Position numbers and translations under genes: made by a program. This document shows, piece by piece, positions 7,581 through 40,768 of a stretch of DNA of 64,000 nucleotides. Source of the DNA: a virus; IMG/VR virus record IMGVR_UViG_3300042197_002234, positions 1 to 64,000 of that record, one strand, 5' to 3'. Position 1 is the first letter of the stretch, and every line of letters begins with the position of its first letter. Below the pieces are notes generated by a model. It was not told the origin of the DNA. It did not search any database and saw only the letters and a list, made by a program, of their open reading frames with translations.

Positions 7581-7635
7581 GATAATGTTCTTTTATTACA
7601 AATATATTAACACATTATTTTTTTTAAATAGTAAA

Positions 7636-7665
7636 TAAAAAATCCACACTTTTGGTGCGGATTTT
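7636..7665 (-). terminator. Rho-independent terminator after the tail tube gene
   Basis: Minus strand reads AAAAUCCGCAC-CAAAA-GUGUGGAUUUUUU (one G-U pair) followed by a U-tract. Confidence 0.7.
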
Positions 7666-7689
7666 CTTTATTTTATTACTGAAATAATA

Positions 7690-8178: not shown

Positions 8179-8277
8179 TTCAGTTTTTTTTTGTTATTTC
8201 TTGTTTATTAGTTTATTATAAATATCACCAAATAAATTTTTTCTCTTTACTTTATTTTTTTTTCAAATTATTCTTAA

Positions 8278-9099: not shown

Positions 9100-9116
9100 T
9101 TAAAATGATAAGGCTT

Positions 9117-9144
9117 AAAAAGGTGGGGATTAACTCCCCACCTT
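9117..9144 (-). terminator. Rho-independent terminator after the tail sheath gene
   Basis: Perfect 10-bp stem AAGGTGGGGA/TCCCCACCTT with a 5-nt loop and a U-tract on the minus strand. Confidence 0.85.
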
Positions 9145-9153
9145 ATATAATTA

Positions 9154-23573: not shown

Positions 23574-24314
23574 TTACGGTGTTGTTACTCCTCTTTTTGA
23601 GACTACTTTGGAACTCATTTCATTTGCAAAAGTCATAGATTTTGGAACATCTTGGGTTTCATAATATTTTAAAATAAAAGAAGCGGTAAATGTATCGCCA
23701 GCACCACTAACATCAATTGTTTCTTTTGGGTTTAGAACTGGATATAAAACTTTATCGTATGTTGAACCTTTAGAACCTAGTGTCGCAATTATATTTTTAA
23801 ATGATGAAAAATTTTTATTATTATTCATTTCATTTTCATTTAATTTTACAAAAGTAAATGACTCTATAATTTCTTCATTTAGTTTTCTCTTGGAATCTAA
23901 AATTGAAAGTTTTGAGTTCTTACCAATAAAAACTAAATCTTCGTCAGTTAAAAATCCTTTGTTGTAATCACTAACTATTACAATATCAAATGAGTTTATA
24001 TATTTACCATCACTAAACTCAATACTGATAGGTTTTATTTTGTACTCACCTTCATCAAGCCTAATAAACATGTGATTACTTTTGGACTCAACAAATCTTG
24101 TTTTAGTTATTTGTTCTGTTTGGAACCAATGTATAATGTCCAAATCTTTAGATAACGATTTTAAATTTTCAACTACGTTGCCCGACATACCACTATTTTC
24201 AATAGTATTCATTGGTTTTAATACAGGTACAGGAGCTTCAGGGCAAACTCTAGTTACTTCAGAATATATAAATCTATCTAAACAAGATTCTCCAATTACT
24301 AATATTTTTATCAT
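23574..24314 (-). CDS. PfkB-family kinase, HldE/RfaE kinase-domain-like (heptose-7-phosphate kinase)
   Basis: VIGESCLDRF...RVCPEAPVPVL (cf. RISPEAPVPV of HldE), VSDYNKGFL, DVSGAGDTF. Confidence 0.85.
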   Translation of the reverse strand: MIKILVIGESCLDRFIYSEVTRVCPEAPVPVLKPMNTIENSGMSGNVVENLKSLSKDLDIIHWFQTEQITKTRFVESKSNHMFIRLDEGEYKIKPISIEFSDGKYINSFDIVIVSDYNKGFLTDEDLVFIGKNSKLSILDSKRKLNEEIIESFTFVKLNENEMNNNKNFSSFKNIIATLGSKGSTYDKVLYPVLNPKETIDVSGAGDTFTASFILKYYETQDVPKSMTFANEMSSKVVSKRGVTTP

Positions 24315-24316
24315 AA

Positions 24317-24709
24317 TTATAAATTATTTTGAGAGTCGCCTTTCCATACTCTATATGAATCAGAATTAAAGTGTTCTGTCGAAACCTCGAAAATAACACC
24401 ATCAGTCAATGCTTCTAATTGATGTGGTTGACCAGGATATTGACGGACGGTATCACCAGGGTTTAAAGTTATTTCATTAACTTCTGCGGTTTCGGTATCA
24501 ATCCATCTATAAATAAAATAACCTTCATTTACATACCAAGTTTCATCTTTAATCATATGGTAGTGCATAGAAAATTTACAACCTTTTTTAAAGTTTAACA
24601 ATTTACCACAATATAATTCATTGTTTTCAAATATAATTTCATGTCCCCACCCTTTTGGAATATTACATTCTTTACACTCAAAGGCATTATAAATTATAGG
24701 TTTTTCCAT
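24317..24709 (-). CDS. Cupin (sugar isomerase-like)
   Basis: KGWGHEI, SMHYHMIKDETWYV, PGQPHQLEA cupin motifs. Confidence 0.8.
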   Translation of the reverse strand: MEKPIIYNAFECKECNIPKGWGHEIIFENNELYCGKLLNFKKGCKFSMHYHMIKDETWYVNEGYFIYRWIDTETAEVNEITLNPGDTVRQYPGQPHQLEALTDGVIFEVSTEHFNSDSYRVWKGDSQNNL

Positions 24710-24743: not shown

Positions 24744-25301
24744 TTAAATAGTTGTTGTTGTAGTTGTTACTGGTATTGTTGTGGTAGTCGTAACAGGTGA
24801 TGTTGTTGTAGTTGTTATTGGAATTGTTGTAGTGGTAGATGTACAAGGACAACATTCTGTGGTTGTGGTTGTAGTAAAAGGTCCATTAACACAACATGGA
24901 AACTCGGAAGTATAACAAGCGTTATATTCTAAATCATCAGCAATGAATGATTCTTGTACATTTATTAGTAATTTTTCTCTAATTGGTAATATAAGAACAC
25001 CATCATCGTTTCTAAGCATAAATTGACCTTCATATCTACCAACCCTGTTAGTATCTTTTGGGGTAAACTGATAATAAATGTAATATTCTGGTTCTGCGTT
25101 TGGGTCTAAAAAAGTTTTTTCAACAAATCCTGCAGGTCTTGAACTTATTTTTGGAACGCCAGTTTCAATATCAACCATAGAAAAGAAAATGGCTGATAAT
25201 TCAATAGTTTTCATAAAACTATAATAATCACTTCTACCATCTTTAACTACTTGTAATTTTAATACAGGTAATGTTGCGTTCTTTTTGATGAAAAAATCCA
25301 T
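24744..25301 (-). CDS. BppU-N-like structural protein with a Thr-rich C-terminal tail
   Basis: FFIKKNATLP.LKLQV...YYQFTPKDT..VGRYEGQF, followed by about 40 aa of mostly Thr. Confidence 0.55.
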   Translation of the reverse strand: MDFFIKKNATLPVLKLQVVKDGRSDYYSFMKTIELSAIFFSMVDIETGVPKISSRPAGFVEKTFLDPNAEPEYYIYYQFTPKDTNRVGRYEGQFMLRNDDGVLILPIREKLLINVQESFIADDLEYNACYTSEFPCCVNGPFTTTTTTECCPCTSTTTTIPITTTTTSPVTTTTTIPVTTTTTTI

Positions 25302-25349: not shown

Positions 25350-27023
25350 TTAGGACTCTTTTCTTAACTTTCCATCATAATGGTCGAATCTATCGTGTTC
25401 TGTTGGTGTTAATAAAAGTAAACCAGGGTTTAACTCGCCCTTTTTAGTTAATTGATACATATGTGACATCCATGTTTGTTCAAACGGATGAGCCCAAGTA
25501 GTTTCCAAAAACATTTTTTTATTACCTGTTCTTGATACTATCTGAGGCCAATTGCAATAATATATTTCACCTTTAACATATGGTATACCACCATAAGAAT
25601 TAATTGAAGTTATTTTTGTTTTGGGCGCGTTTGGGTCCAACCCTTGTTTTGGTAACATTGGTTTTTCGGGCCAATACTCTTCTCTAATATTTTGAGGTAC
25701 ATTATACCATGACCATTGAGTTGAGTTATCACCATAAAACTCGGTAAAATTTAACTTTAAAAAATCAAAATTATTTTTTTTGGTTATCATTAAACTTTTA
25801 TCGTACAATCCGTCAATATACCTATTAAACCCGTTTTTACATGTTTCACCTTTATTAGGATAAAAAAACATATCGTCTTCAAAAAACAAATAATAATCTA
25901 AGTCTGTTGACTCAAAGTGTTCCGCAATAAATTGTCTACCACCACATATACCTAAATTTTCTTTTTTAATATGTTCAAAACCATATTCTTCACAAATTTT
26001 AGTATATTCATCATTTGTTGATAAATCTGTAGAATTATTTAATAAAAATTTTTTAGTTTTATTAATATAATTTGAATCATACTCCAACATAGATGTGATA
26101 AGAGTTTTGAACTGTTTAGGACTATTAAATGTTATTACATATAACCCCACTTTATTTGGGTCTAAGTTATTTTCAATAACGACAGGACTTTCGTTTTTTA
26201 TTTTTAAATTATCGTTCTTTAAATCTTCAAAAAATTTCCACACCATACCATCACCATTAATATCAAAATAATTTATAATATCTGAATGTTTATAACACAT
26301 TATACTGAATATAGATTCTTCAGTACCCATAAAACCTTCGTCTAATGTTGATGAAAGTAGCCCATAATAAATTGAGTTAATATCTGATACTGTGTTTTTA
26401 GGTCCACCAAAAAAACCACCTCTAGCAACTTTGGTAACTTTTTTACCTGACAGTTCATTTAATTTTTGATAATTAAAACCATGAATTTCTGTATTTGCTT
26501 CATAAGGAAAACAAACAAAAGAAAATTTATTAATATATTTTGGTAGTTTTTCAAAAACTTTATCATGTGTAAAATATCCAGGGTGTACTGTATTTGTTAA
26601 TCCAGCATCAATCCAAAAAAGATATTCTGAATTAAATTTATCAAGAATTTTTGCATCATGTAGTAAAAAAACTTTTGACATAACAAGTGGATTATACATT
26701 TCAAGTTTTGCTTGTGTGGAGTCTTTTAACCACCCTGTTTGATTATACCAAAATTCTTTATTTCTAATAGTCTGAATTTTATTGTAAAATTCATTGTTTT
26801 TAAACCAATTAATATCTCTAACGATAAATTGAGTATTCTCAACATTTCTTTTTTTGAATACAAATTCTTGTAATTCTTTATCACCAAAAATAATCATGTT
26901 ATTTGGTGTATCTAATAACTGATTAAACTTATCTAAATAATGTTGGTATGTTCTTGACCATCCTTCGGATAAATAACCTCTACCAATATCCCATAATCCT
27001 GTAACTAAAGTAACCCCCTTCAT
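25350..27023 (-). CDS. HtrL/YibB (WlaTC)-family glycosyltransferase fused to a GT-A domain
   Basis: TLVTGLWDIGR, YNPLVMSK, FWIDAG and GGFFGG, then a second domain with GGRQFIA and FFEDDM. Confidence 0.75.
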   Translation of the reverse strand: MKGVTLVTGLWDIGRGYLSEGWSRTYQHYLDKFNQLLDTPNNMIIFGDKELQEFVFKKRNVENTQFIVRDINWFKNNEFYNKIQTIRNKEFWYNQTGWLKDSTQAKLEMYNPLVMSKVFLLHDAKILDKFNSEYLFWIDAGLTNTVHPGYFTHDKVFEKLPKYINKFSFVCFPYEANTEIHGFNYQKLNELSGKKVTKVARGGFFGGPKNTVSDINSIYYGLLSSTLDEGFMGTEESIFSIMCYKHSDIINYFDINGDGMVWKFFEDLKNDNLKIKNESPVVIENNLDPNKVGLYVITFNSPKQFKTLITSMLEYDSNYINKTKKFLLNNSTDLSTNDEYTKICEEYGFEHIKKENLGICGGRQFIAEHFESTDLDYYLFFEDDMFFYPNKGETCKNGFNRYIDGLYDKSLMITKKNNFDFLKLNFTEFYGDNSTQWSWYNVPQNIREEYWPEKPMLPKQGLDPNAPKTKITSINSYGGIPYVKGEIYYCNWPQIVSRTGNKKMFLETTWAHPFEQTWMSHMYQLTKKGELNPGLLLLTPTEHDRFDHYDGKLRKES

Positions 27024-27769
27024 TATTTTTCTAAATAACCTAATTTATACCATGTATCAGCATTGTCGTTTACATTTTCATTTCTAAACCAAAAACACCC
27101 ACCTTTTTCATTAGGTAAGTGACCTACAATAGGGAACGATTCCACTCTAGGTCTGAAGTCGGTGTCTTTATCGTAATTCATTACTATTTTTTGGATATTG
27201 TGTTTACCTAAGTATGATGATAATAATATGTCATCACTCCAAGATTTACCGACAAATTCCTCAAAAAAATCTTGTCTAAAAAAATTATTTTTATATGAAA
27301 TTGTTTTATAACCTTCTAATATTTTCACTTTAGTGTCTTTATTTATTGTAGTACAAAAATGACAACTACCGTCCAATGCCGACAAACCAGCGAACCCTAA
27401 AGCTGAGTTAGGATAAAGTTTTCTTTTTTTCAAATGATACTCAATAAAACCATCAATGTATTCCAAGTCATCATCAATTGTTATTAGAATTGTTTCATCA
27501 TTTCTATCTAACCTCATAATTGTTGGTAAAATTTTAGTTAAAGACCCATAATCCTCGGTTCTAAAAATTTTAAGTTTTGTATTACTAATTAAAATTAACC
27601 ATTCTGGTATAACATATTTTTCGTTTGTTTTATTACACAAATAGGGAATATTTAGGTGTATCTCATAATTTTGATATGTTAAATTTAATAACTTGTCAAT
27701 CACAATTTTGAATGAGTTATTGATTAGTCTATTAGGTATTGTTGTTAAAGTTAAAATTACTTTGTCCAT
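27023..27769 (-). CDS. GT-A glycosyltransferase
   Basis: LTLTTIPNRL, DYGSLTKILP, ITIDDD, WSDDI. Confidence 0.75.
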   Translation of the reverse strand: MDKVILTLTTIPNRLINNSFKIVIDKLLNLTYQNYEIHLNIPYLCNKTNEKYVIPEWLILISNTKLKIFRTEDYGSLTKILPTIMRLDRNDETILITIDDDLEYIDGFIEYHLKKRKLYPNSALGFAGLSALDGSCHFCTTINKDTKVKILEGYKTISYKNNFFRQDFFEEFVGKSWSDDILLSSYLGKHNIQKIVMNYDKDTDFRPRVESFPIVGHLPNEKGGCFWFRNENVNDNADTWYKLGYLEK

Positions 27770-28440
27770 TTTAAAAAAAGTGTTTGTCTACCATTAAATA
27801 ATGGGGTATAATCGTGCTCAATTAAAAAAGGTGATAATAAATTATCTTTACCACCATCAGATGTTAAGTAATCAGTATCATCAATTAGAATTAAATGTGT
27901 GTCTGAAAGTTTATCTTTAGCGGCTAAATAAGCTTCTAAATGTTTTTCCGCATATTTTGGAGTCCCTTTATCCCACCCATCTAAAAAAAGAACATCAATT
28001 TTTTTATCAAATTCGTTTAAAAATTCAATACCGTCCTTAGGTATGTTTATATTAATATTACTCGGTAATGTTCGATTTAAATTCGAATATGACCATTTTA
28101 TTCCGTTTATACAATTTGTATCAATATCTACAGTGTAGACCTCAAAACCTGATTCGGCCCAAAAAAAACCACCATGGCCGTCACAACAACAAGGGGGTGA
28201 TAGATACGCATTATTTTTTTCATTATAATAATCAATACATTTTTGTGTTACGGCAAACCTAGTTGAGCCAATTTCAACAACGGTATTTAAACCCAATACT
28301 TTTGCAATCTCAATAGAAGTTTTTAAATACGGTGCAGGTTTTGAGCGTTTGATGTCATAATCTTCACCTGTTAGATTATCATAAGTCCAAAATTTTTTAT
28401 CTATTTTAAAATTATGTATTATTTTGTATATTTCTTTCAT
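27757..28440 (-). CDS. Class I SAM-dependent methyltransferase
   Basis: VVEIGS, YTVDID, IDVLFLDG, ILIDDT. Confidence 0.8.
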   Translation of the reverse strand: MKEIYKIIHNFKIDKKFWTYDNLTGEDYDIKRSKPAPYLKTSIEIAKVLGLNTVVEIGSTRFAVTQKCIDYYNEKNNAYLSPPCCCDGHGGFFWAESGFEVYTVDIDTNCINGIKWSYSNLNRTLPSNININIPKDGIEFLNEFDKKIDVLFLDGWDKGTPKYAEKHLEAYLAAKDKLSDTHLILIDDTDYLTSDGGKDNLLSPFLIEHDYTPLFNGRQTLFLKWTK

Positions 28441-28441
28441 A

Positions 28442-29689
28442 TTACAAATTACCTGTTATTCTATCACACCAACCTTTTGATTCTGAGTGAGGCCAAACAA
28501 CCCAATATTTTGGTTTATGTGTTGTTTGAAAATCTCTCCAAATTTTACAATAACCATCAGGGTCGGTCTTCATTCTTTTTATTTCATTTTTATCAGCGTC
28601 TTTCCTAAAGATAGTTTCGTCTTTATCGTCATGAAACGCAACCACCCAAAAATCATAGTCATCTTCAGGTACTTGTGAAAAACTTACATCTATACAGTGT
28701 TTGAATATTGATGCAAAACTATTTTCCCACACCTCTTCAGTTTCATATATTGTAGGATTGGGTGGGTAATGTTTGTCTAATGTGTATTGTTGAACGGCTC
28801 TTCTTGAAAACTTTAATCCCGCATAAATTTCATATTCTTTTAAAGTTCTAACAGAACCGAAACCATAAGGACCTTCATGACCTTCTTGAATTTCACCGTC
28901 CATACCAAATAATTTTCTGTTTGTTAAATGAGAGTGGTTATTTTTATTAACCCACTCTTTATCATCATCCCACTGTTTGGTTCTTCCTTTACGAGTATAT
29001 TCATGCCAAATCAAAACTTTATGTGGATGAAACAAATCATAACCCCAAGTGTAAGCACGTACCGCAATAGATATCTCCTCACCATGAAAATAGTATTCAG
29101 GGTTGTGTTGTACTTCTTTACTAAACTGACCTAATGTAAAACAAAAATGAGCAGAATAAAACCTGGCAGGGACAGGTTCTGTCATTTCTTGCCAACCAGG
29201 AATTGTTTCGGGTAAAAAGAAAACAGCCCCTTCGGGAATGAATCTATCAAAAGACATTCTCCAAGGTTCTCTAACTCTACCCTCGGGGTCGTTATCGGGG
29301 TCAAATGAAGAAACATATGCGGTTAATAAAGGTTTCTCAAAACCTTTTTCCTGTAATTGTTTAATCATTTTGATAAATTCAATATCCCACTCTTTTTCAA
29401 ATCGCATGTGGGAGTCTATTTGAAGGGTGTATTCTTCACCATCATATAGTTGTTGTACTTGATTTCTCGCCCAACAAACACCTTTTGATTCTGTGTATAA
29501 AACATCTAAGACTCTAAATCTATCATCATTTTTATATTTGTCTAAGTTGTCAAAACCATCTTCAGGATGATACTGACGACAAATACCAATACGTAAGTTC
29601 TTTGGAAACTTAGCGTATTTTAACATTGATTCAATTGTTGGAATAAGTTGCGGGTCCCTATACGAGGCTATTTGAACAAATATTTTCAT
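28442..29689 (-). CDS. GT60 / Gnt1-like (Skp1-type) polypeptide GlcNAc transferase
   Basis: IFVQIASYRDP, GVCWARN, LQIDSHMRF, FHGEE...RAYTWGYD. Confidence 0.85.
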   Translation of the reverse strand: MKIFVQIASYRDPQLIPTIESMLKYAKFPKNLRIGICRQYHPEDGFDNLDKYKNDDRFRVLDVLYTESKGVCWARNQVQQLYDGEEYTLQIDSHMRFEKEWDIEFIKMIKQLQEKGFEKPLLTAYVSSFDPDNDPEGRVREPWRMSFDRFIPEGAVFFLPETIPGWQEMTEPVPARFYSAHFCFTLGQFSKEVQHNPEYYFHGEEISIAVRAYTWGYDLFHPHKVLIWHEYTRKGRTKQWDDDKEWVNKNNHSHLTNRKLFGMDGEIQEGHEGPYGFGSVRTLKEYEIYAGLKFSRRAVQQYTLDKHYPPNPTIYETEEVWENSFASIFKHCIDVSFSQVPEDDYDFWVVAFHDDKDETIFRKDADKNEIKRMKTDPDGYCKIWRDFQTTHKPKYWVVWPHSESKGWCDRITGNL

Positions 29690-29818: not shown

Positions 29819-30343
29819 TTAAGGTAAACCTGGTGTATTTGATGGTGTTGGGGTCGATGTTGGTGTTAATAAAGGTGGTGGACATGTATTACCGACACAA
29901 GGTAAACCAATACTAATTACTACTTCTGGGTCCGCACTTGGTAATTTACCACAATAATAAACCGACGTGCCTGAATATACCACAGAATACAATATGGTCC
30001 CATCGCATTGAGTTAAACTAAAGTTATAATCAGTCACACCTGTTAAATTATCAAATGTGATACAATTACAATCAACAACCATACTTGGTGTAGGAGTTGG
30101 GGTAAGTGTTGGTGTAGGTGTGGGTGTGACACAGGTATATAATTGAAAGTGTTCACATCCATAAGCATCAACAAGTTTTACTATTAGTTGTTGTATACCT
30201 GATAATGGTGATGGTACATTTACTGTGATAGGTAGTGATGATACTCCTGTAGCAACCAAATAACAATATGTTAATGTTATATCACATATTGTAATACTAA
30301 ATGGCGTTGTTCCAGTAAATGATGTAATTTCAATAGTATACAT
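29819..30343 (-). CDS. Cys-rich virion-type protein with TPTP tracts
   Basis: 174 aa. Its N-terminal domain is paralogous to 50840-51142; it carries two (TP)n tracts. Confidence 0.65.
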   Translation of the reverse strand: MYTIEITSFTGTTPFSITICDITLTYCYLVATGVSSLPITVNVPSPLSGIQQLIVKLVDAYGCEHFQLYTCVTPTPTPTLTPTPTPSMVVDCNCITFDNLTGVTDYNFSLTQCDGTILYSVVYSGTSVYYCGKLPSADPEVVISIGLPCVGNTCPPPLLTPTSTPTPSNTPGLP

Positions 30344-30435: not shown

Positions 30436-31377
30436 ATGAAAAAGGTTTGTTTAAATTTAAGTGAGTCTAACGCTATTGGCGATACCTTATGTTCAACACC
30501 TGTTTTAAGAAAATTGTATCAATCATACAATTCAAAAATCATTGTTGTTACAAAATATCCCGAATTATTTAAACACAATCCTTATGTTGAAAAAGTTTAC
30601 GAATCAAATTCAATTAATTTAGATTATATTAATGAAAATTTTATAACACATAATTCATTTTACGAAAACGGTCAAAAAAATAATCGTGGTGTTGAATATA
30701 AACATAACACAATTGATATTAGACAATATCACGCAATCAAACTTGGTTTCATGTTAACCAAAGATGAAATGGAATTAGATTATATTCCTGACGAATTTGA
30801 ACAAATTAAAAATCTACCCGAAAAATATATTTTAATTCATCCAGTTCAGAATTGGCCAAGTAGAACATGGTCAGCATCTAATTGGATGGAGCTAACTAAA
30901 AGATTAAATGATAACAATATTAATGTTGTATCAGTAGGTAAAGACTCAAGTGAAACAGGATTTTTTAATGTTAAAAAACCAATTTTCAACTTTAAAATTG
31001 ATAAAGGTTTTAATTTGATGAACAAAACTAGTTTAAGTCAAAGTTGGCATCTAATTCAAAAGTCTTCTTGTTTTGTCACTATGGATTCTGGTTTATTACA
31101 TTTAGCGGGAACTACAGATGCTAATATAATACAATTAGGTAGTTCAATAAATCCTGAATTTAGAGCACCATATAGAAATGGTGGACAAACATATAAATAC
31201 CACTACGTTGGTGGTACATGTCCTTTAATGTGTGCTTCTGATATGAAATATGGTGTTAAAGAATGGGGTGACATACAGGGAGTTCCACCATTGATTGGGT
31301 GTTTAGAAGGTAAAAAAACTTTTGAATGTCACCCGTCTGTAGATAAAGTTTTTGAAAAAATAATGGAAATTATATGA
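30436..31377 (+). CDS. GT9-like (heptosyltransferase-like) glycosyltransferase
   Basis: IGDTLCSTP, WSASNWMEL, FVTMDSGLLHLAG. Confidence 0.85.
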   Translation: MKKVCLNLSESNAIGDTLCSTPVLRKLYQSYNSKIIVVTKYPELFKHNPYVEKVYESNSINLDYINENFITHNSFYENGQKNNRGVEYKHNTIDIRQYHAIKLGFMLTKDEMELDYIPDEFEQIKNLPEKYILIHPVQNWPSRTWSASNWMELTKRLNDNNINVVSVGKDSSETGFFNVKKPIFNFKIDKGFNLMNKTSLSQSWHLIQKSSCFVTMDSGLLHLAGTTDANIIQLGSSINPEFRAPYRNGGQTYKYHYVGGTCPLMCASDMKYGVKEWGDIQGVPPLIGCLEGKKTFECHPSVDKVFEKIMEII

Positions 31378-32408
31378 AGATAGGTATTTTATTTTCTGCT
31401 TATAACTCTGAAAAATATATTGATGGGTGTTTAACGCCATGGTTTAATTTAAAAAATGAATTTGACATTGTTATTGGATGTAATAGTGGAATGTATTCCG
31501 ACTATGTTAATTTTGGTATAGAACCTAAAAACAAATCGACCTTAAAAAAATTGGTTGAGTATGATTTGGATTTTTTAATCTCCACAGGTCCTAAATCATT
31601 ATTAGATGAGAATTCTAGTAAAAATTCAGTACTACATGTTTTAAAGAATTCTTGCGATATCATATGGATTTTAGACTCTGATGAATTTTACACTGAAAAT
31701 GAAATTAGAAATATTATAACATATATACAAAGAACCCCTGAATATGATTGGTATACTGTTAATTTTAAAAATTTAACTTTAACCGATAGAATGTTTATGG
31801 ACGGATTTAATCGCCCTAGAATTTTTAGAACAGACAGAAATGGGGGTATTAATGAATTTTATTTTGATAATCATATCACATATAACGATGGTGAGACTTT
31901 TGAATCCAAACCTCACACATCAATACCAAGAACGGTTGCTTGGGTAGCTCATTACTCTTGGTTGAATGGGGATGTTAGGTCTAAAGAAAAAATAACATAT
32001 CAAAATAATAGATTTTTAAATGGTTGCTCTTTTGAGTGGGATAGCGAAAACAACAAGTTAAGATTTTCTAAAGATTTTTATAATAGAGTTAATTTAGATA
32101 TACCAATTTTACATGAAGAAATTGATATTTTTTCTGATGAGTTTACAATTGATTTTAAAAGAAGTGAAAATAAATTTTATGTACAAAACATAGTAAAACC
32201 ACAAACTTTAACATTTAAAATATATGATTGTATTACTGGTGGATTAATATATGAAACAACCATGGAATTAATTCCTCAATATAATTATTTCATTTATCCA
32301 TCACAAAATAACTTTGATAGTGATGAGAATTTTAAAAAATTTAGAGTTGAGGTCTTGAAAGAAAATCAAATAATACATAATGAATTTATACATTTAAAAT
32401 ATGAATAA
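31374..32408 (+). CDS. GT2-like glycosyltransferase
   Basis: SAYNSEKYI and WILDSDEFY (DxD). Confidence 0.75.
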   Translation: MKIGILFSAYNSEKYIDGCLTPWFNLKNEFDIVIGCNSGMYSDYVNFGIEPKNKSTLKKLVEYDLDFLISTGPKSLLDENSSKNSVLHVLKNSCDIIWILDSDEFYTENEIRNIITYIQRTPEYDWYTVNFKNLTLTDRMFMDGFNRPRIFRTDRNGGINEFYFDNHITYNDGETFESKPHTSIPRTVAWVAHYSWLNGDVRSKEKITYQNNRFLNGCSFEWDSENNKLRFSKDFYNRVNLDIPILHEEIDIFSDEFTIDFKRSENKFYVQNIVKPQTLTFKIYDCITGGLIYETTMELIPQYNYFIYPSQNNFDSDENFKKFRVEVLKENQIIHNEFIHLKYE

Positions 32409-33345
32409 TGTTTTTAAAATAGTTAATATAGAACCTGAAGGTAAAATACATTTTGTTTTTTCAGGGGATGAGTCGGAATGTGAAATATCCATAATAGATA
32501 AAAACACAGATTTAGTTGTTCACAAGACAAATATTTGGTTAACCCAAGATGTGACTTACTGGATTTCAACAGGTGAAAAAAATGCTAAAAGATTAAAAAA
32601 TGTGATTTTTAGAGTTAATTACAACGGTAAAAATTATGATGAGGAATTAAATTTTTCTGGTGAGAATAGATTTTTAGTTATTAATTCTGAACAAATAAAA
32701 CTTAACAATTGTGGTGATGATTTATTTCCAATAGTGTGTGAAATATTTTACGATAAAGTTTATGAAAGAGATTTTGTAAAAGTAGGAATTGATGATATAG
32801 TTGTTGATATTGGGGCTAACTATGGAGTTTTTTCATTGTACACTCAAATGTTCAAACCAAAAAAAGTATATTCTGTAGAACCTGTTAGAACCACCTTTAA
32901 ACAAATGAAAAAAAATTTAGACAAATATGGTGTTGTATGTATCAACAAATCAATAAGTTCAGAAAACGGTTATGAGTCTTTTGCTATTACCGATGTTAAT
33001 GGTAATAACTACGCATTGAAAAATATTGATGGGTATCACCCATCGTCTATAAAAAACCAAGAAATTGTTGAGACAACCACAATAAACCAATTAATATCTG
33101 ATTATGATATACCTCACATAAATTTCTTAAAAGTAGATTGTGAAGGTGGTGAGTATGATTTATTTACAACAATAGATAAAGAATATTTAAAAAATAAAAT
33201 ACAGAAAACCGCAATAGAATACCACTCAAGTAATATTAAAGATACTGTGGTTTCAACACTTTTGGAAAACGGGTTTGTTGTTGAAGATATCATAGGTGAA
33301 CCTGAAATAGGATTAATATACGCATACAACAAAAACTTTAATTAA
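32401..33345 (+). CDS. FkbM-family methyltransferase
   Basis: VVDIGANYG, YSVEP, FLKVDCEGGE. Confidence 0.9.
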   Translation: MNNVFKIVNIEPEGKIHFVFSGDESECEISIIDKNTDLVVHKTNIWLTQDVTYWISTGEKNAKRLKNVIFRVNYNGKNYDEELNFSGENRFLVINSEQIKLNNCGDDLFPIVCEIFYDKVYERDFVKVGIDDIVVDIGANYGVFSLYTQMFKPKKVYSVEPVRTTFKQMKKNLDKYGVVCINKSISSENGYESFAITDVNGNNYALKNIDGYHPSSIKNQEIVETTTINQLISDYDIPHINFLKVDCEGGEYDLFTTIDKEYLKNKIQKTAIEYHSSNIKDTVVSTLLENGFVVEDIIGEPEIGLIYAYNKNFN

Positions 33346-33346
33346 T

Positions 33347-36031
33347 ATGGTAAAGAAAAAACTTTTAGTTGTTACGCCTCACTTAAGTACTGGTGGTGCC
33401 CCTCAAGTTACTTTAAATAAAATAAAATTGTTGATAAATGATTATGAAATTAAGTGTGTTGAGCACGATTTTGTTGCGTGGAGTTTTGTTGTGCAAAGAA
33501 ACCAAATTCAAGAAATGTTGGGTGAAAATTTTATTTCATTAGGTCAAGATAAGTCTCAACTATTATCAATTATTGATGAGTTTAAACCTGATGTAATTTA
33601 TATGGAGGAGTTTCCTGAATTTTTTATGCCAGACGATGTTACAAAAATAATATATTCAAAAGATAGAAAATATACTATTTTAGAAACAACACATGACTCC
33701 AGTTTTCCTGTAAACTCAAAAAGGTGGTTTCCTGATAAATTTATTTTTGTAAGTGCGTTTAATGGTTTTAGATATTCGGTCTATGATGTACCATATGAAA
33801 TTGTTGAGTATCCTGTAGATTATAAAGAAAAAAATAAAACAGAAAATCAAAACTTATTGAATTTTGACCCGTCATATAAACATGTGTTAAATGTTGGTCT
33901 GTTTACGAGGAGAAAAAATCAAAGTTATATTTTTGAAATTGCAAAACTATTAAAAAACTATAAAATAAAATTTCACTTTTTAGGTAATCAAGCCGATAAC
34001 TTTAAAGATTATTGGGAACCTTTAATTAATGACAAACCTGAAAATTGTGTAGTATGGGGAGAAAGAAAAGACGTTCAAAGTTTTATTGAGGCATCAGATT
34101 TATTCTTTTTTGCGTCAAAGGGGGACAGACATAATAAAGAATTAAACCCTATAGCATTAAAAGAGGCTTTAGAATATAAAATACCTATGATGATGCACAA
34201 TTTAGATGTGTATTGTGGTAAGTATAACAATTACGATAATATAACATTTTTAACTGGTGATGTGAACAAAGATAGTCAAAAATTATTGGAACTATTAAAA
34301 CCATATAAAGAAAATTATGAAAACGAGTTGGTCATGATTGGTACTTATCCTAACACCAAATCAAGAGAAAAACTAACTTTAGATTGTATTGATTCTGTTA
34401 AAAAATTAGGTAGAAAAGTTATGTTAGTGTCTCACTACACTGTTTCATCCGAAATTCAAGAAAAGGTCGATTACTATGTGTATGACAAATATAATCCAAC
34501 AACTGAACATTCATACTATACAAGATTTTATAATTACAAACATGATTTTGATGTCGAAATAAATATTAATGGTTTAAAAAATACAAACCAATCTTTACCC
34601 GTACTAACAAATTTAATTAATGGTTTTAGAGCCGCAAAAGATTTAAACTTTGAAAAAGTATTTTACATAACTTACGATGTTATTTTAAACCCTAACGACA
34701 TTGAACACGTTAACAATTCATTTATTGAGGTTGATAGTCACAACGCATATCTATGTACATTACCAACCCCTTTTGGATATGGTATTGAAACTACCGCAAT
34801 GACTTTTAAAACTGATTATTTCTTGCAAAAATTAGAACATATTAGAACACCTAATGATTATAAATTATCAGTTAATAAATTTAATTGTCATAACTTTTTA
34901 GAGGATTTTTTTTGGAATGTATTTTCAAATGAGAATAATGTTAAAATTATCACAAATGAACAAAGCACATTTTTGATAAATTCAGGTAAAGGAGTTTCAT
35001 CTAATTCAGAATATTACTCTATCGTACCAATTAAAAATACAACAGATAAATGGGTGTTTTATTTTTATACCTATAATATTGATAATAGATGTGTTAATGT
35101 TGAGGTTATTGAAAATGGTGATATTTCTTTTTCTAAAAAATTTAAGATTTCAGAACAAAGGGAGTTTTTAAAAGAATTAAAATATAATGGAAATCAGATA
35201 GAAATTACATTAACTTTTTATGAAGATAATATTGTTTATAAAACAGAAAAATATGTTTTAAATAATCAAACAATAACCCAACATAAAAATAACGGATGGT
35301 TTAAATATAAAAAACTACCAAATATTAAATTAGTTCATATACAGACAACTAATAACGATGAGAGAGAACAACTCTCAAGACAATCACTACAACAAGTTAT
35401 TCCACACGGAATTAAATATACTTTACATACTAATGAATTATATAAATCACTTCCACCATCACATAATTGTGTGAGACCTCAATGCGTTTCAATGGAGTTA
35501 TTTGATGAAGAACAGGTTAAACAATTTGGTACCGCTCTAACACCCGCTCACTACGGTTGTTATGAATCTTTTAAAAATGCGATACTGTCTGAATTTGATG
35601 ACGATTTAGATTTTCTAATAGTTTGCGAAGGTGATTGTATTATTGAAGTACCAATTGATGATTTTATTCAAAAATTAAATCAGTCATGTGAAATAATTAG
35701 CCAAGCAAATATTGAGTATTTTTCTTTTGGTGATACTAAAACTTTAGATTTTGGTTGGCATCAGTCAAATGTTATTGAGGATATCCCAAATCAAGATTTA
35801 TTATTTATTACCGATAAAATAATTGGGTTACAGTGTATTATGTTTCCTCGTAAAACTAAAGAATTTTTACATCAACAATTAAGAACTCATAAGTGGGATT
35901 GTGCCGACACTTATTTTAATATGATTTTTGCTGAATATGGTTTAAAAATGGGTATACTAAAAAATAGAATAACTACACAGGCTGACGGTGTATCGTTAAT
36001 AGATAAAGAATATAAAACATTTATAAAATAA
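33347..36031 (+). CDS. Three-domain glycosyltransferase (GT4 + unknown GT-A-like + GT25-like)
   Basis: PHLSTGGAPQV, VGLFTRRKNQ and KEALEY (GT4); a middle domain paralogous to 36031-37011; HYGCYES...VCEGD (GT25-like). Confidence 0.8.
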   Translation: MVKKKLLVVTPHLSTGGAPQVTLNKIKLLINDYEIKCVEHDFVAWSFVVQRNQIQEMLGENFISLGQDKSQLLSIIDEFKPDVIYMEEFPEFFMPDDVTKIIYSKDRKYTILETTHDSSFPVNSKRWFPDKFIFVSAFNGFRYSVYDVPYEIVEYPVDYKEKNKTENQNLLNFDPSYKHVLNVGLFTRRKNQSYIFEIAKLLKNYKIKFHFLGNQADNFKDYWEPLINDKPENCVVWGERKDVQSFIEASDLFFFASKGDRHNKELNPIALKEALEYKIPMMMHNLDVYCGKYNNYDNITFLTGDVNKDSQKLLELLKPYKENYENELVMIGTYPNTKSREKLTLDCIDSVKKLGRKVMLVSHYTVSSEIQEKVDYYVYDKYNPTTEHSYYTRFYNYKHDFDVEININGLKNTNQSLPVLTNLINGFRAAKDLNFEKVFYITYDVILNPNDIEHVNNSFIEVDSHNAYLCTLPTPFGYGIETTAMTFKTDYFLQKLEHIRTPNDYKLSVNKFNCHNFLEDFFWNVFSNENNVKIITNEQSTFLINSGKGVSSNSEYYSIVPIKNTTDKWVFYFYTYNIDNRCVNVEVIENGDISFSKKFKISEQREFLKELKYNGNQIEITLTFYEDNIVYKTEKYVLNNQTITQHKNNGWFKYKKLPNIKLVHIQTTNNDEREQLSRQSLQQVIPHGIKYTLHTNELYKSLPPSHNCVRPQCVSMELFDEEQVKQFGTALTPAHYGCYESFKNAILSEFDDDLDFLIVCEGDCIIEVPIDDFIQKLNQSCEIISQANIEYFSFGDTKTLDFGWHQSNVIEDIPNQDLLFITDKIIGLQCIMFPRKTKEFLHQQLRTHKWDCADTYFNMIFAEYGLKMGILKNRITTQADGVSLIDKEYKTFIK

Positions 36032-37011
36032 TGAAAAAATTAATTGTTATTGGGGCTTACCCAAATACACCAAAAAAGAAAGAAGTTTTAGTTGATGAAA
36101 TAAAATCGTTAAAATCTTTAGATTTTGATTTTATGTTGGTCACACATTATCCTACTCCTGTATATATACAGGAAATGTTTGATTACTACATTTATGATAA
36201 AAATCAAACTTTAACACCATTAGATAAAACAACATATTTTTGGTTTAATAGTGGTTCTTTTCTTGTTAGAATAAATAACTCAAGGCACGCTTTACCTATA
36301 AGTCAAAGTATGTTTAACGCTTTTAAATTTTCTGAAATAAAAAACTATGATTTTGTTTATTTTATTGAAAACGATAATTGGTTTTCAGAGAATGATTCTA
36401 AAAAACTTTCTGATTTGGTTACCACTATGTTTGAAAATAACAAAAAATGTATTTTTTTTAAACCTGAAAGTTATAGAGACAATGGTTCTTACGTTTACGA
36501 AACTCAGTTATTTGGAATAACCCCAAAATATTTTAATCAAGTTTTTAATTTACCTATAACAGAAGAAGAGTACTTTTCACATCCAACATATCCCGTTAGT
36601 TTAGAGTTAGGTTTTTATCAAAAACTTTCTGAGTTTGAAGATGATTTTTTAATAATAAATGAACACTCCTATCAATATTTTAATGAAAGTAAAATTAATA
36701 TTTTTAGGGTTGAAAATTTATTAATAGATTTAGTTTATAATAGTAAAAATCCTGCTCAACCTGTTTTGTTTTGTTATGGTAATAGAGTTTTTGACGACTT
36801 ATATAGAGTAATTGTAAGGTTAAATAACATTATAATTAATGATAGAAATTTACATTCAAACAATTGGTTTTATCAAACATTTGATTTGGATGGTAGTAAT
36901 TTGGTTTTTGAAATTTATAACAATGATGTACTACAAGAAAAAAAATCTTATACTTTAGATGAACACTTAATAGATAATTTAAAAGATAAAGGTATAATAG
37001 ATTTTAATTAA
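36031..37011 (+). CDS. Hypothetical glycosylation protein, paralog of the middle domain of the upstream GT
   Basis: LIVIGAYPNT...MLVTHY aligns with LVMIGTYPNT...MLVSHY. Confidence 0.65.
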   Translation: MKKLIVIGAYPNTPKKKEVLVDEIKSLKSLDFDFMLVTHYPTPVYIQEMFDYYIYDKNQTLTPLDKTTYFWFNSGSFLVRINNSRHALPISQSMFNAFKFSEIKNYDFVYFIENDNWFSENDSKKLSDLVTTMFENNKKCIFFKPESYRDNGSYVYETQLFGITPKYFNQVFNLPITEEEYFSHPTYPVSLELGFYQKLSEFEDDFLIINEHSYQYFNESKINIFRVENLLIDLVYNSKNPAQPVLFCYGNRVFDDLYRVIVRLNNIIINDRNLHSNNWFYQTFDLDGSNLVFEIYNNDVLQEKKSYTLDEHLIDNLKDKGIIDFN

Positions 37012-37012
37012 T

Positions 37013-37558
37013 ATGGCACACAACCAACAACAAAATTTTTACGGTAGGGTTAAAAATAAATTTCCAAAATATTTTAGAGATGTTAAAGTACTTGATATAG
37101 GTTCTTTAGACATAAATGGTAATACAAAACATTTTTTTTCACATCCACTATATTATGTCGGTGTGGACCTTTCAGAAGGTAATAACGTAAATGTGGTTTG
37201 TCCTGGTCACCTTTATGATTCAGGATTCCAATTTGATGTTGTAATGTCTTCTGAGTGTTTTGAACATGATATGTATTACCCAAGGACAATATCAAATATG
37301 ATTAAACTATTAAAACCAAATGGATTAATGATATTTACTTGCGCATCTACAGGAAGACCTGAACATGGTACATTAAGGTCAAATCCTACCGACGCACCAT
37401 TTTTACAAAATATTGATGAAAAATGGGCGAATTATTATAAAAATTTAACAGAGGATGACATTAGAGCAATTATAAATGTTGAAGACATTTTCAGTGATTA
37501 CGGTTTTGAATATGAACCATCTTCATGTGATTTATATTTTTGGGGAATTAAAAAATAA
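37013..37558 (+). CDS. Class I SAM methyltransferase
   Basis: VLDIGSLDING, YVGVD, FDVVMSSECFEH, LKPNG. Confidence 0.9.
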   Translation: MAHNQQQNFYGRVKNKFPKYFRDVKVLDIGSLDINGNTKHFFSHPLYYVGVDLSEGNNVNVVCPGHLYDSGFQFDVVMSSECFEHDMYYPRTISNMIKLLKPNGLMIFTCASTGRPEHGTLRSNPTDAPFLQNIDEKWANYYKNLTEDDIRAIINVEDIFSDYGFEYEPSSCDLYFWGIKK

Positions 37559-37564
37559 TAATTA

Positions 37565-38251
37565 ATGAATGTTGATGTAATTTGTTTAACTAACACATAC
37601 GATTACAGTATGTTTGAAGTAACAAAAAGAGTTATTAAGTCATTACATTTGTCTGAAAAAAATATTAAGTTTAATATTATTCTATTAGAAAGCAATAAAA
37701 ACAATCCATATGTATATACGGATGTTGATTTTTATATAAAACCTGAAGAAGATTTTAATTATAACAAATATTTAAATATCGCAAATAAATACCTAACATC
37801 AGATTGGGTTTTGATTACAAATAATGATGTAATCTATCAAAGAAATTGGTTTTCAAAAATATTAGAGATATATAATAAACGACCTGATATAGAATCTTTC
37901 TCACCTAAAGAAGTACTTTTTTATTCAACAATATACGGAGACCATTTTGATTCTGACGATGAATATTGGGAAAATTATAAAGTAACCGAAGGTCTTTTAG
38001 GATGGTCTTTATTAATGAAAAAAAAAGTTTGGGATGAGGTTTATCCGTGGGACGAACAATTCGATTTTTTTTATCAAGATAATGATTATGCAAAAATAAT
38101 AGAATCAAAAGGTATTAAACACGCAATAGTTAGAGATTCATTGACTTTACATATAGGTAATTTAAATTTCTTTAAAGATGTTGTTGACCACGAAAGAAAT
38201 ACAAAAATGAAAGAAGGGTATAATAAATTTTTAAATAAATGGGGTAATTAA
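37565..38251 (+). CDS. GT2-family glycosyltransferase
   Basis: FNYNKYLN, ITNNDV, WDEQFDFFYQDND. Confidence 0.8.
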   Translation: MNVDVICLTNTYDYSMFEVTKRVIKSLHLSEKNIKFNIILLESNKNNPYVYTDVDFYIKPEEDFNYNKYLNIANKYLTSDWVLITNNDVIYQRNWFSKILEIYNKRPDIESFSPKEVLFYSTIYGDHFDSDDEYWENYKVTEGLLGWSLLMKKKVWDEVYPWDEQFDFFYQDNDYAKIIESKGIKHAIVRDSLTLHIGNLNFFKDVVDHERNTKMKEGYNKFLNKWGN

Positions 38252-40357
38252 ATGAGAATAATACACGTAACACCAGGAATGATACCAATCCCACCTAATG
38301 GATGGGGTGCGGTAGAAAAAATAATTTGGGAATACCATAAAAATTTACAGAAGTTAGGTTATGAATCTGAAATTAGATACCTAAATGAGGTTAACTATAA
38401 AGATGGTGACATCGTACACATCCACATAGCCAATTTAGCTTTGGAGACATATGAAAGAGGAATACCATATATTTTCTCATTACATGACCACCATGTGGTA
38501 TATAATGGAAAAGATTCTTTTAATTATAAACAAAACTTAGAAGCAATTAAAAAATCAGTAGTTTCATTCTGTCACGCAGAATATTTGGTTGATTATTTTG
38601 ATGAAACCGATAAGTTGTTTTATTTGTCGCATGGTGTAAACACAGATTTCTTTAAAGTAGAAAATCCATACAGAAGTGAACATCGTTTATTGTGTTTAGC
38701 TAATAACGGAATCGGTGGTGATTCATCTTATGATAGGAAAGGTTTCAGATATGCAATTGAAGCTGCAAAAAAATTAAATTTACCAATCACTGTCGCGGGC
38801 CCCGATAACAACAAAAACTTCTTTCAACACCATTTAGATTTAATGGATTATGATAAACTAACATTGTTGTTTGATAATCCAAATGAAGACAGTATTTTAG
38901 AGTTGTATAAAAATCACTCAATATTTTTACACCCATCTTCATTAGAAGCTGGTCATCCAAATTTAACATTATTAGAGGCGATATCTTGTAATCTACCAAT
39001 AGTTGGAACTTACGAAGGTAATAGAAAAATACACGGTATGATTGTGACTGAAAGAGATTCAAATCGTGTTGCAAACTCAATTCAAGAAATAATATCAAAT
39101 TATGAATATTATGTTAATGAAACTTTTAAAAATAAAGAAAATTTTGATTGGTCTACAATAACAAATAGATTATCAAAAATGTACAATTTAGTTAGTATTA
39201 TTAAAAAAGAGTATAATTCTGAAGAAACAAAAAGTTTATTAATTAATAATATTGAAAATACATCAAGGTTTGATTATAAAAAAGATAATAACTTAACATT
39301 TAATGTTCATTTTGTAAACAACCCGTTTTTTGAAATTTTAGGTGATTCAGATAAAGAATATAATGTTCTTTTTTATGATAATGATGAACTAATTTATTCA
39401 ACAAAACTTAGAGCCAATATGTGGTCAAAACTTAATAGGTCATATTATACAAATTGGATAATTGAGGTTTACGATGAAGACAAATTAATTTATAGATACA
39501 CAACTAACTTTACAGGTAAAAGAGTTTTTATTTCATTTGACTCAAAGTCATTAGGGGATAATGTATCTTGGATACCGTATGTGTTAGAATTTAAGAAAAA
39601 ACACAATTGTAATGTTGTTGTTTCAACATTTTGGAATAAACTATTTAAGGATGTGTATCCCGAACTCGAGTTTGTTGAGCCAGGTAGTGTTGTGGATGAT
39701 TTAGTCGCAATGTATAGAATAGGATGGTTTTATGATAATAATCAAGAACCAGTTTTACCAAGTACTATTCCACTACAAAAAGCAATTACAAATATTTTGG
39801 GATTAGAGTTTGAGGAAATAAGACCAAGAATTCACTTTGAACCAAAAGAAAGATTGTTTGAGGAAAAGTATATCACAATCGCAAATGAATCTACTGCAGG
39901 TTTAAAGTTATGGAACAATCCTAATGGTTGGCCAGAATTAGTATCATATTTAAAATCAAAAGGTTATAGAGTGGTTAATGTATCTAAAAATGGTGAAAGA
40001 TTAAAAGGTGTTACACAACTAAAAGACACGTCAATTGAAAATACCATGAATGCTATTTATCATAGTGAGTTCTTTATTGGTTTATCTAGTGGGTTGTCTT
40101 GGTTAACATGGGGGTTAGGTAAACATGTAGTTATGATTTCAAACTTCACTGAGTATGACCATGAATTTACTTCAAACTGCACAAGAATTACAAACCCATC
40201 TGTCTGTCATGGATGTTGGAATAACCCTATGTTTAAGTTTGATAAGGGTGATTGGAATTGGTGTCCTGAGCATAAAGGAACTGAAAGACATTTTGAATGT
40301 CATAAATCAATAACTGCGGAAATGGTTATAGAAAAAATAAAACATTTATTACAATGA
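38252..40357 (+). CDS. GT4 fused to an Aah/TibC-type protein O-heptosyltransferase
   Basis: N-terminal GT4 (GWGAVEKI, EAGHPNLTLLEA). C-terminal half: SLGDNVSWIPY..EF..KHNC, FFIGLSSGLSWLTW, CHGCW...WCP.H..T.R.FEC, matching the TibC pattern including four Fe-binding Cys. Confidence 0.9.
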   Translation: MRIIHVTPGMIPIPPNGWGAVEKIIWEYHKNLQKLGYESEIRYLNEVNYKDGDIVHIHIANLALETYERGIPYIFSLHDHHVVYNGKDSFNYKQNLEAIKKSVVSFCHAEYLVDYFDETDKLFYLSHGVNTDFFKVENPYRSEHRLLCLANNGIGGDSSYDRKGFRYAIEAAKKLNLPITVAGPDNNKNFFQHHLDLMDYDKLTLLFDNPNEDSILELYKNHSIFLHPSSLEAGHPNLTLLEAISCNLPIVGTYEGNRKIHGMIVTERDSNRVANSIQEIISNYEYYVNETFKNKENFDWSTITNRLSKMYNLVSIIKKEYNSEETKSLLINNIENTSRFDYKKDNNLTFNVHFVNNPFFEILGDSDKEYNVLFYDNDELIYSTKLRANMWSKLNRSYYTNWIIEVYDEDKLIYRYTTNFTGKRVFISFDSKSLGDNVSWIPYVLEFKKKHNCNVVVSTFWNKLFKDVYPELEFVEPGSVVDDLVAMYRIGWFYDNNQEPVLPSTIPLQKAITNILGLEFEEIRPRIHFEPKERLFEEKYITIANESTAGLKLWNNPNGWPELVSYLKSKGYRVVNVSKNGERLKGVTQLKDTSIENTMNAIYHSEFFIGLSSGLSWLTWGLGKHVVMISNFTEYDHEFTSNCTRITNPSVCHGCWNNPMFKFDKGDWNWCPEHKGTERHFECHKSITAEMVIEKIKHLLQ

Positions 40358-40734
40358 AAATAGAAGTATCAATTGGTGAGATTGTTGACAAATTAACAAT
40401 TTTGGAAATTAAAAAAGATAAAATAAAGGATGAAAATAAATTGGTTGATATCTTAAAAGAGTATAACTATTTAAAAGATGTTGTAACAAATGAAATTGGA
40501 TTTTCATTAGAATCCGAAGAATATAAAGATTTATTGGAAACAAATAAAAAACTTTGGGATATTGAAGACCATATTAGAAATAAAGAAAAAAGAAAATCTT
40601 TTGATATTGAATTTATTGAGTTGGCTAGAAATGTGTATATTACAAATGATGTTAGAGCATCACAAAAAAAAGATATAAATCTGAAACTTAATTCAGAATT
40701 TATAGAACACAAATCATATTCTGACTATAAATAA
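40354..40734 (+). CDS. DUF6165-like protein
   Basis: IEVSIGEIVDKLTILEIK...LWDIEDHIR...FIELARNVYITND.R...K..IN. Confidence 0.7.
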   Translation: MKIEVSIGEIVDKLTILEIKKDKIKDENKLVDILKEYNYLKDVVTNEIGFSLESEEYKDLLETNKKLWDIEDHIRNKEKRKSFDIEFIELARNVYITNDVRASQKKDINLKLNSEFIEHKSYSDYK

Positions 40735-40768
40735 AAAAAGGGGGGTTTTAAAACTCCCTTTTTTTATA
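40729..40768. terminator. Bidirectional terminator between the GT operon and the giant repeat gene
   Basis: ATAAAAAAAGGGGGGTTTT/AAAACTCCCTTTTTTTAT inverted repeat with A/T tracts on both sides, between convergent genes. Confidence 0.8.

Follow-up and report, generated by a model that had tools for sequence, protein, structure and literature searches.

Within the first 64 kb of the 195,527-bp IMG/VR viral contig IMGVR_UViG_3300042197_002234 (hereafter the window, 64,000 nucleotides), a minus-strand open reading frame (ORF) with an ATG start (28442..29689) encodes a soluble protein of 415 aa which, based on model score, DxH motif, and fold, is a member of glycosyltransferase family 60 (GT60). 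We consider that this enzyme probably initiates O-glycosylation on Thr residues within the Thr/Pro (T/P) or poly-Thr tracts found in tail and fibre proteins of the phage itself. In the mechanism we propose, a soluble cytoplasmic retaining enzyme of the GT-A type would transfer an N-acetylhexosamine (HexNAc), by family precedent alpha-N-acetylglucosamine (GlcNAc) from UDP-GlcNAc, to Thr in short Thr/Pro or poly-Thr tracts of phage structural and fibre proteins. This would take place in the host cytoplasm, before or during virion assembly, and an HtrL/YibB-like partner, along with the glycosyltransferases and methyltransferases of a variable gene island, would then extend the first sugar.

Residues 1–294 of the 415-aa protein matched the Pfam GT60 model PF11397 (“GlcNAc”) at E 2.8e-66 (224.8 bits, for a cut-off of 21), a match that was recovered again in a genome-wide scan, and the full-length protein matched PHROG 24687 “glycosyltransferase” (E 1.5e-167), a family placed in the PHROG category “moron/AMG/host takeover”. 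In an alignment of 45 sequences sharing 37–91% identity with the window protein, several positions were invariant, namely D92 and H94 of the DxH motif (D92-S93-H94; 29408..29416, minus strand), which is a predicted metal and UDP-sugar site, E204-E205 (GEE), and H229, while an N-terminal IFVQIASYRD block was nearly so. Taken together, the PF11397 score and the invariant DxH, GEE, and distal His confirmed the GT60-like motif set that had been reported in an initial annotation made from the sequence alone. The database lists the protein at 394 aa; the 415-aa start was preferred because the N-terminal IFVQIASYRD block is conserved, and the conserved first 12 residues in homologues show that the start at 29689 is the correct one. 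The segment running from GEE to H229, 25 residues apart (29003..29080, minus strand), is the putative counterpart of the segment that, in the polypeptide GalNAc-transferase (ppGalNAc-T) ppGalNAc-T2, includes the WGGENxE motif and provides the third Mn ligand. The GEE–His spacing of 25 and the DxH–His spacing of ~135 presumably correspond to those of E334/H359 and D224/H226 in human GalNAc-T2, a parallel drawn by spacing alone. The replacement of DxD by DxH is a signature common to the sister families GT27 and GT60 (PMC7185993).

PDB chains searched by sequence yielded no match at E<=10 (phmmer), and a profile built from the 45 sequences retrieved only two unrelated chains near E 0.5; hence, only fold comparison was informative. 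The AlphaFold (AF2) model of the protein (pLDDT 95, pTM 0.89) placed ppGalNAc-Ts at the top Foldseek ranks (E 5.5e-11 and below), and the 29 best PDB entries obtained with VIA-align were all ppGalNAc-Ts (Z 19.5–22.5 over 259–284 residues, root-mean-square deviation 3.1–3.8), followed by generic GT-A enzymes (Z <=18.3). The catalytic GT-A domain was accordingly delineated at residues 1–294 (28808..29689, minus strand) from the Pfam span, the AF2 model, and the PDB fold matches. The kinship with ppGalNAc-Ts put forward in the initial annotation is thus supported by the PF11397 match, by the Foldseek and VIA-align rankings, and by the published relationship between the two families (PMC7185993). 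Beyond the catalytic domain, the AF2 model of residues 291–415 (pLDDT 92) displayed a seven-strand beta-sandwich domain (residues ~327–415; 28445..28711, minus strand), which is kept in bacterial homologues and whose best matches were FN3 domains at a middling Z of 7.6 over 78 residues. A ricin-type beta-trefoil lectin was considered for this domain and ruled out by the beta-sandwich model and these FN3-like matches. No membrane segment was detected in the protein, the maximum 19-residue hydropathy being 0.62.

Within the literature surveyed, GT60 enzymes have been characterized only in protists. The polypeptide alpha-GlcNAc-transferases of this group, which include the mucin-initiating enzyme of Trypanosoma cruzi and the Golgi enzyme of Dictyostelium, belong to the same PF11397/GT60 family and carry the same DxH, and the Thr-rich, Pro-containing tracts that are their known acceptors would also be the acceptors of the phage enzyme. 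Unlike these protist enzymes, however, the phage protein is soluble and cytoplasmic, without a membrane anchor, includes the extra C-terminal beta-sandwich, and is missing positions 45–95 of the PF11397 profile. Gnt1, the GT60 GlcNAc-transferase acting on Skp1 hydroxyproline in Dictyostelium and Toxoplasma, is like the phage enzyme soluble and cytoplasmic, and acts on a folded protein (PMC6939170). By analogy with these characterized protist members (PMC6939170), the phage enzyme would use UDP-GlcNAc as donor and form a retained alpha-linkage. The closest solved fold is that of GT27, i.e. the animal and apicomplexan ppGalNAc-Ts (Z up to 22.5 over ~270–280 residues), which have in common with the phage enzyme the DxH and a GEE/GEN-type motif, and which initiate O-glycans on Thr/Pro-rich tracts, the same role as proposed here. 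Sequence identity to GT27 is just 11–14%, however, and the phage enzyme has no type II membrane anchor and an FN3-like sandwich instead of a ricin-type lectin. Membership of GT27 itself was rejected given the lack of a lectin trefoil, of a membrane anchor, and of any sequence-level PDB match.

The Thr/Pro tracts listed in the initial annotation were all present in the phage, and two more were identified. Directly upstream of the GT60 gene, a 174-aa protein with TPTPTP linkers (29819..30343, minus strand) is a candidate acceptor, as is a 185-aa protein with a C-terminal poly-Thr tail (24744..25301, minus strand), and both are encoded in the same minus-strand gene run as GT60. An 889-aa protein with five T/P tracts (51169..53838, minus strand) represents a further candidate, and a Thr-rich tract (11533..11646, minus strand) covers residues 282–319 of the 1111-aa tail sheath (gene 9154..12489; PHROG 23, E 7e-56). 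The additional tracts were found in a 642-aa protein with one short T/P tract (4701..6629, minus strand) and in a 375-aa protein located beyond the window (contig 194359..195486). These tracts are short (10–30 residues), and several are nearly pure Thr. The ESM Atlas offered weak leads for two of these proteins, namely BppU_N (0.83) for the 185-aa protein and LamG (0.85) for the 889-aa one. A possible further acceptor is a 3343-aa collagen-like (Gly-Ser/Thr-Ser)n protein (40764..50795, minus strand), recognized from its translation. Its ORF consists almost entirely of Gly-Ser/Thr-Ser triplets, is nearly proline-free, includes globular Cys-containing C-terminal parts, and has a GC content of ~50% compared to ~30% around it.

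We compared this arrangement with 80 related IMG/VR loci. While all 80 contained GT60 (~79% identity), 73 the HtrL-like gene, and 61 a homologue of the 185-aa protein, each of the other transferases was detected in only 0 to 14 loci, a pattern of a conserved first enzyme and variable later ones that fits an initiator-plus-extenders design. A homologue of the 174-aa protein lay directly upstream of GT60 in 43 loci, ranging in length from 162 to 880 aa and displaying TP tracts in 35 of them; tracts were likewise found in 32 of the 61 homologues of the 185-aa protein, and in 20 of the 23 loci with a homologue of the 889-aa protein. Overall, an ORF with a strict T/P tract was located within 10 kb of GT60 in 78 of these 80 phage loci.

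The same linkage was found outside of phages. We collected 80 bacterial or metagenome-assembled genome (MAG) GT60 loci from many phyla through a scan of species-representative genomes, and applied one ORF-based strict T/P-tract detector to these loci and to 20 control regions (400 kb in all) drawn from five of the genomes concerned. A strict tract was identified in 19 of the 80 GT60 loci (17.8 per Mb) versus none of the 20 control regions. The bacterial tract proteins are unrelated to one another and to the phage ones, and include VgrG, BNR/fn3, LamG, crAss-muzzle-like, and kumamolisin/S8-like peptidase proteins. Nine genomes (~41 Mb in total), all selected because a tract was already known to lie near GT60, were also scanned genome-wide with DNA TP-tract patterns. 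All or nearly all hits fell inside the GT60 locus for Ralstonia (52/53), Achromobacter (31/31), Paraherbaspirillum (11/11), an alphaproteobacterium (26/27), Prosthecobacter (15/15), Opitutaceae (5/5), and Vicinamibacterales (3/3), as did 4/6 for Acidimicrobiaceae and 1/2 for Gemmatimonadaceae, with only 6 hits at 5 sites outside GT60 loci.

Individual bacterial loci provide further parallels to the phage arrangement. In 26 of the 80 bacterial loci, GT60 has an HtrL-like gene next to it or fused with it, and in Gemmatimonadaceae (L101 and L104, ~7215–10966) a 241-aa TP protein, GT60, and a homologue of the 557-aa HtrL-like protein follow one another in the same order as in the phage, even though the TP proteins of the two are not homologous. 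In Burkholderiales (L147, L146, L113, L142, and L136), GT60 lies 1–4 kb from a VgrG with a long C-terminal (TP)n, (TEPPP)n, or (TPEP)n tail. In Ralstonia sp. 25C (L147:7950–13131), it is found inside a core type VI secretion system (T6SS) cluster, in the order TssE, TssF, TssG, TssA, fimbrial-like gene, GT60, VgrG, TagF, and TssM. The C-terminus of this Ralstonia VgrG is a terminal tail of ~60 TP repeats rather than an interdomain linker, and holds 52 of the 53 (TP)6 hits of the genome. An exact-protein look-up of the Ralstonia GT60 homologue returned no record. Separately, a Ginsengibacter MAG (L105:2643–4955) encodes a kumamolisin/S8-peptidase-like protein with ~12 tandem TPPPTTTKKP repeats near a 667-aa GT60 ORF; these repeats presumably resemble the Thr-Lys-Pro repeats of T. 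cruzi mucins.

In the phage itself, GT60 is part of a glycan island of ~17 kb (23.5–40.7 kb) which sits between the sheath and neck genes and the fibre genes. The minus-strand run is co-directional, with gaps of at most 129 nt and several overlapping genes, and includes in order the 174-aa TP protein, GT60, two small genes (227 and 248 aa; 27023..28440), the 557-aa HtrL/YibB-like protein, the 185-aa protein with a poly-Thr tail, a cupin, and an RfaE-domain-I-like kinase. The HtrL/YibB-like gene (25350..27023, minus strand; PF09612, E 2.6e-19) is a conserved partner of GT60 for which we propose a role as second-step transferase. The two small genes overlap or abut their neighbours, and their products had no Pfam match and were found in few of the 80 related loci. 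At the end of the run (23574..24709, minus strand), the sugar kinase matched PfkB (E 1.1e-12) and, at a score below its cut-off, TIGR02198 (E 7e-33), next to the cupin (Cupin_2). On the opposite strand, a plus-strand arm (30436..40734) with Pfam matches to one GT9-like and two GT2-like transferases, FkbM and other methyltransferases, an 894-aa GT4 protein, a 701-aa fusion of GT4 and TibC-like domains, and DUF6165 varies in gene content among related loci. A hydropathy scan of the island (23.5–40.7 kb) detected no membrane segment in any of its proteins, hence no lipid-carrier, flippase, or polymerase route, and the island thus seems to comprise soluble enzymes that work on an acceptor in the cytoplasm. 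A sigma-70 promoter scan of the operon gave chance-level hits only, and no convincing minus-strand terminator was found inside it; a look-up of sequencing runs listed no RNA holder.

The C-terminal part of the 701-aa fusion (38252..40357, plus strand) is assigned by TIGR04414 (286.6 bits, for a cut-off of 200) to the Aah/TibC protein O-heptosyltransferases. By this assignment, the island, which adjoins the collagen-like gene at this end, would include a second initiator of protein glycosylation, and the presence of a member of a bona fide protein O-glycosylating family is in line with a protein acceptor for GT60. The TibC/Aah autotransporter O-heptosyltransferases are cytoplasmic and glycosylate repeat-rich structural proteins, and a true member is here encoded 9 kb from GT60. 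They nevertheless form an unrelated GT9-like family which transfers heptose to another acceptor residue, and as such provide context rather than a relative. For mycobacteriophages, virion glycosylation has been shown, the glycans being carried by capsid and tail-tube subunits at their C-termini (Freeman et al. 2023, cited in PMC12619734 and PMC10877033). As presented in these citing papers, transferases encoded by the phage are proposed to modify structural proteins of its own virion, and the C-terminal glycans recall the poly-Thr tail of the 185-aa protein; host phylum and proposed acceptor proteins are different, however, and glycosylation, demonstrated there, is a prediction for the window phage. 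The layout of the window is similar to that of virion glycosylation systems, with transferase genes located among structural genes, a sheath that contains a Thr tract, and a 185-aa protein that ends in poly-Thr.

On which residue the first sugar would be attached was addressed by a search for prolyl 4-hydroxylase (P4H)-type enzymes, a test suggested in the initial annotation. Gnt1 requires the P4H PhyA and a single hydroxyproline on Skp1, whereas no PF13640 or PF03171 match was found in the 195-kb contig (~65% complete), and the tracts of the phage include pure poly-Thr. Because several tracts are nearly pure Thr and no P4H-type hydroxylase was found, Thr seems a likelier acceptor than hydroxyproline. 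A PhyH-family 2-oxoglutarate dioxygenase (E 1.2e-14; L191) is encoded just beyond the window (contig 65052–65648, plus strand) in a sugar-tailoring cassette. This PhyH-type enzyme may conceivably act as a peptidyl hydroxylase, which leaves a small doubt on the preference for Thr.

The initial annotation had proposed that the enzyme primes the tracts of the sheath and of the 185-, 174-, and 889-aa proteins, giving the phage a eukaryote-like mucin coat. The priming proposal holds in part: tract linkage in 78/80 phage and 19/80 bacterial loci versus 0/20 controls argues for it, whereas the sheath tract lies 16 kb from GT60 and is linked to it by composition only. Based on gene linkage to T/P-tract proteins in phages and several bacterial phyla, a polypeptide acceptor is plausible. 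A eukaryote-like mucin coat, on the other hand, is an overstatement, as the tracts reach only 10–30 residues, and as the family is widespread in prokaryotes (4472 clusters) and is hence not specifically eukaryotic.

Several observations weigh against the initiation of O-glycans on phage tracts. The 80 phage loci belong to one clade and amount to roughly one evolutionary observation, and 61 of the 80 bacterial loci were without a strict tract within 8 kb. Since the nine genomes scanned genome-wide were preselected, the unbiased figures are those of 19/80 loci versus 0/20 controls, along with the low genome-wide density of tracts. T/P tracts also commonly serve as flexible linkers, and their co-occurrence with fibre proteins could have an unrelated cause. 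No informative match was obtained for the C-terminal domain, Foldseek giving none at E<=0.001, and our literature search returned no biochemical or proteomic work on prokaryotic or phage GT60. Finally, the fold also resembles GlcNAc-transferases of teichoic acids and polysaccharides (Z ~16–18), and several island neighbours belong to families of the lipopolysaccharide (LPS)-core type (GT9, HtrL/YibB, and RfaE-like kinase).

The last of these observations would suit a non-protein acceptor, with the enzyme helping to build or modify a glycan (host LPS core, capsule, or a soluble oligosaccharide, for instance), e.g. altering the host surface during infection. Such a role would be consistent with the GT9 heptosyltransferase-like, HtrL/YibB, and RfaE-domain-I-like neighbours, with the “moron/AMG/host takeover” category of the PHROG, with the similarity to TarS, TarP, K4CP, and heparosan synthase (Z 16–18), and with the lack of a characterized prokaryotic GT60 in the literature found. 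We regard it as unlikely, however, as the absence of membrane segments in island proteins leaves no Wzx, Wzy, or lipid-carrier step, the polypeptide GalNAc-transferase fold is the closest by a clear margin, T/P-tract linkage spans phyla, and the 701-aa protein has a GT9-like C-terminal half that belongs to the TibC type, whose members glycosylate proteins. A protein acceptor could also be foreign to the phage, if the enzyme were a takeover or effector glycosyltransferase acting on host or target-cell proteins, in the manner of GT-A toxin glycosyltransferases. The position of the Burkholderiales homologue next to a VgrG gene, where T6SS cargo is typically encoded, and the soluble, cytoplasmic nature of the enzyme are compatible with this possibility. 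Yet the Ralstonia gene is located within the core T6SS cluster beside a VgrG tail holding 52/53 (TP)6 hits, tract association also occurs in non-T6SS contexts, and the pairing with a second transferase in 26/80 bacterial and 73/80 phage loci suggests chain building, which together make an effector role quite unlikely.

Two further explanations concern other acceptors in the phage. Glycosylated collagen-like fibres are known, and the main acceptor could be the 3343-aa (Gly-Ser/Thr-Ser)n fibre, comparable to BclA of Bacillus anthracis, instead of the T/P tracts, given that its gene lies at the island's edge and encodes thousands of Ser/Thr residues. This appears improbable: only 8 of the 80 related phage loci have a collagen-like ORF at a distance of 10 kb or less from GT60, the adjacent TibC-type transferase is a nearer candidate enzyme for it, and bacterial GT60 loci pair with TP tracts and not with collagen repeats. 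Phage glycosyltransferases often glycosylate modified bases in DNA, thereby evading restriction (PMC12619734), and the island adjoins a DNA polymerase gene. We nonetheless find it very hard to credit such an activity here, because the sole thymidylate-synthase-family gene lies 130 kb away with canonical ThyA motifs (PPCH, PFNIASY), bacterial chromosomal homologues of GT60 occur in T6SS and surface-protein contexts, and the fold is of the polypeptide-transferase type. The thymidylate synthase gene (contig 162795–163988, minus strand; L170) displays, beside its canonical motifs, long insertions in an open frame of 411 aa.

If the GT60 enzyme does O-glycosylate Thr/Pro tracts, the tail and fibre proteins of many uncultured jumbo phages would be coated with sugar, with a bearing on how hosts are recognized, on particle stability, on grazing, and on immune recognition. 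The (TP)n-tailed VgrG beside GT60 would likewise be a glycosylated T6SS component, of which no description was found in the literature searched, and glycoengineers would gain a soluble enzyme of bacterial type with which to carry out mucin-like O-glycosylation in the cytoplasm of E. coli. The near-uniqueness counts of TP tracts genome-wide, the control regions, and the T6SS context of GT60 are contributions of the present analysis. A broader and more doubtful scenario is that GT60 and the HtrL-like protein constitute a widespread prokaryotic cytoplasmic “mucin-type” O-glycosylation cassette acting on Thr/Pro tails of contractile-injection machines (phage sheaths and T6SS VgrG) and fibres, from which the protist GT60, and perhaps GT27, might have descended.

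More than 7500 proteins matched the GT60 protein at E<=0.001, the best 120 of which displayed 78–100% identity, and the relatives formed 4472 clusters at 50% identity. Judging from these matches, the gene family is very abundant in freshwater metagenomes. A number of giant multi-domain proteins of up to 2461 aa (P0123, P0124, P0126, and others) hold between two and four stretches resembling GT60. The only cultured phages to encode GT60 (46–50% identity) are two Xanthomonas jumbo phages, XacN1 and Xoo-sp13, and two Stenotrophomonas phages, CM1 and RAS14. Since the only island genes in common with XacN1 are GT60 (49%) and the HtrL-like gene (43%), and since the DNA polymerases do not match, these two genes appear to travel together. 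In XacN1, ORF325 (L089:7371–17312) encodes a giant non-collagen protein of 3313 aa which adjoins a GT60/GT9 island and has a tract near its C-terminus.

The contig has a GC content of ~30% and an estimated CheckV completeness near 65%. Genes for a tail sheath, a head-tail adaptor-like protein, a helicase, and a DNA polymerase in the window identify it, by annotation, as a large tailed phage, which is uncultured and comes from freshwater. The closest organism-named GT60 copies (64–82% identity) were found on MAG contigs labelled Saprospiraceae, Bacteroidia, Bacteroidetes, and Lewinellaceae, which hints at a host from the Bacteroidota. More broadly, GT60 was detected at 59–82% identity on Bacteroidota-binned MAG contigs (Saprospiraceae, Bacteroidia, Lewinellaceae, and Cytophagaceae; L090–L096 and L100), one of them 230 kb long, and these contigs are probably binned relatives of the window phage.

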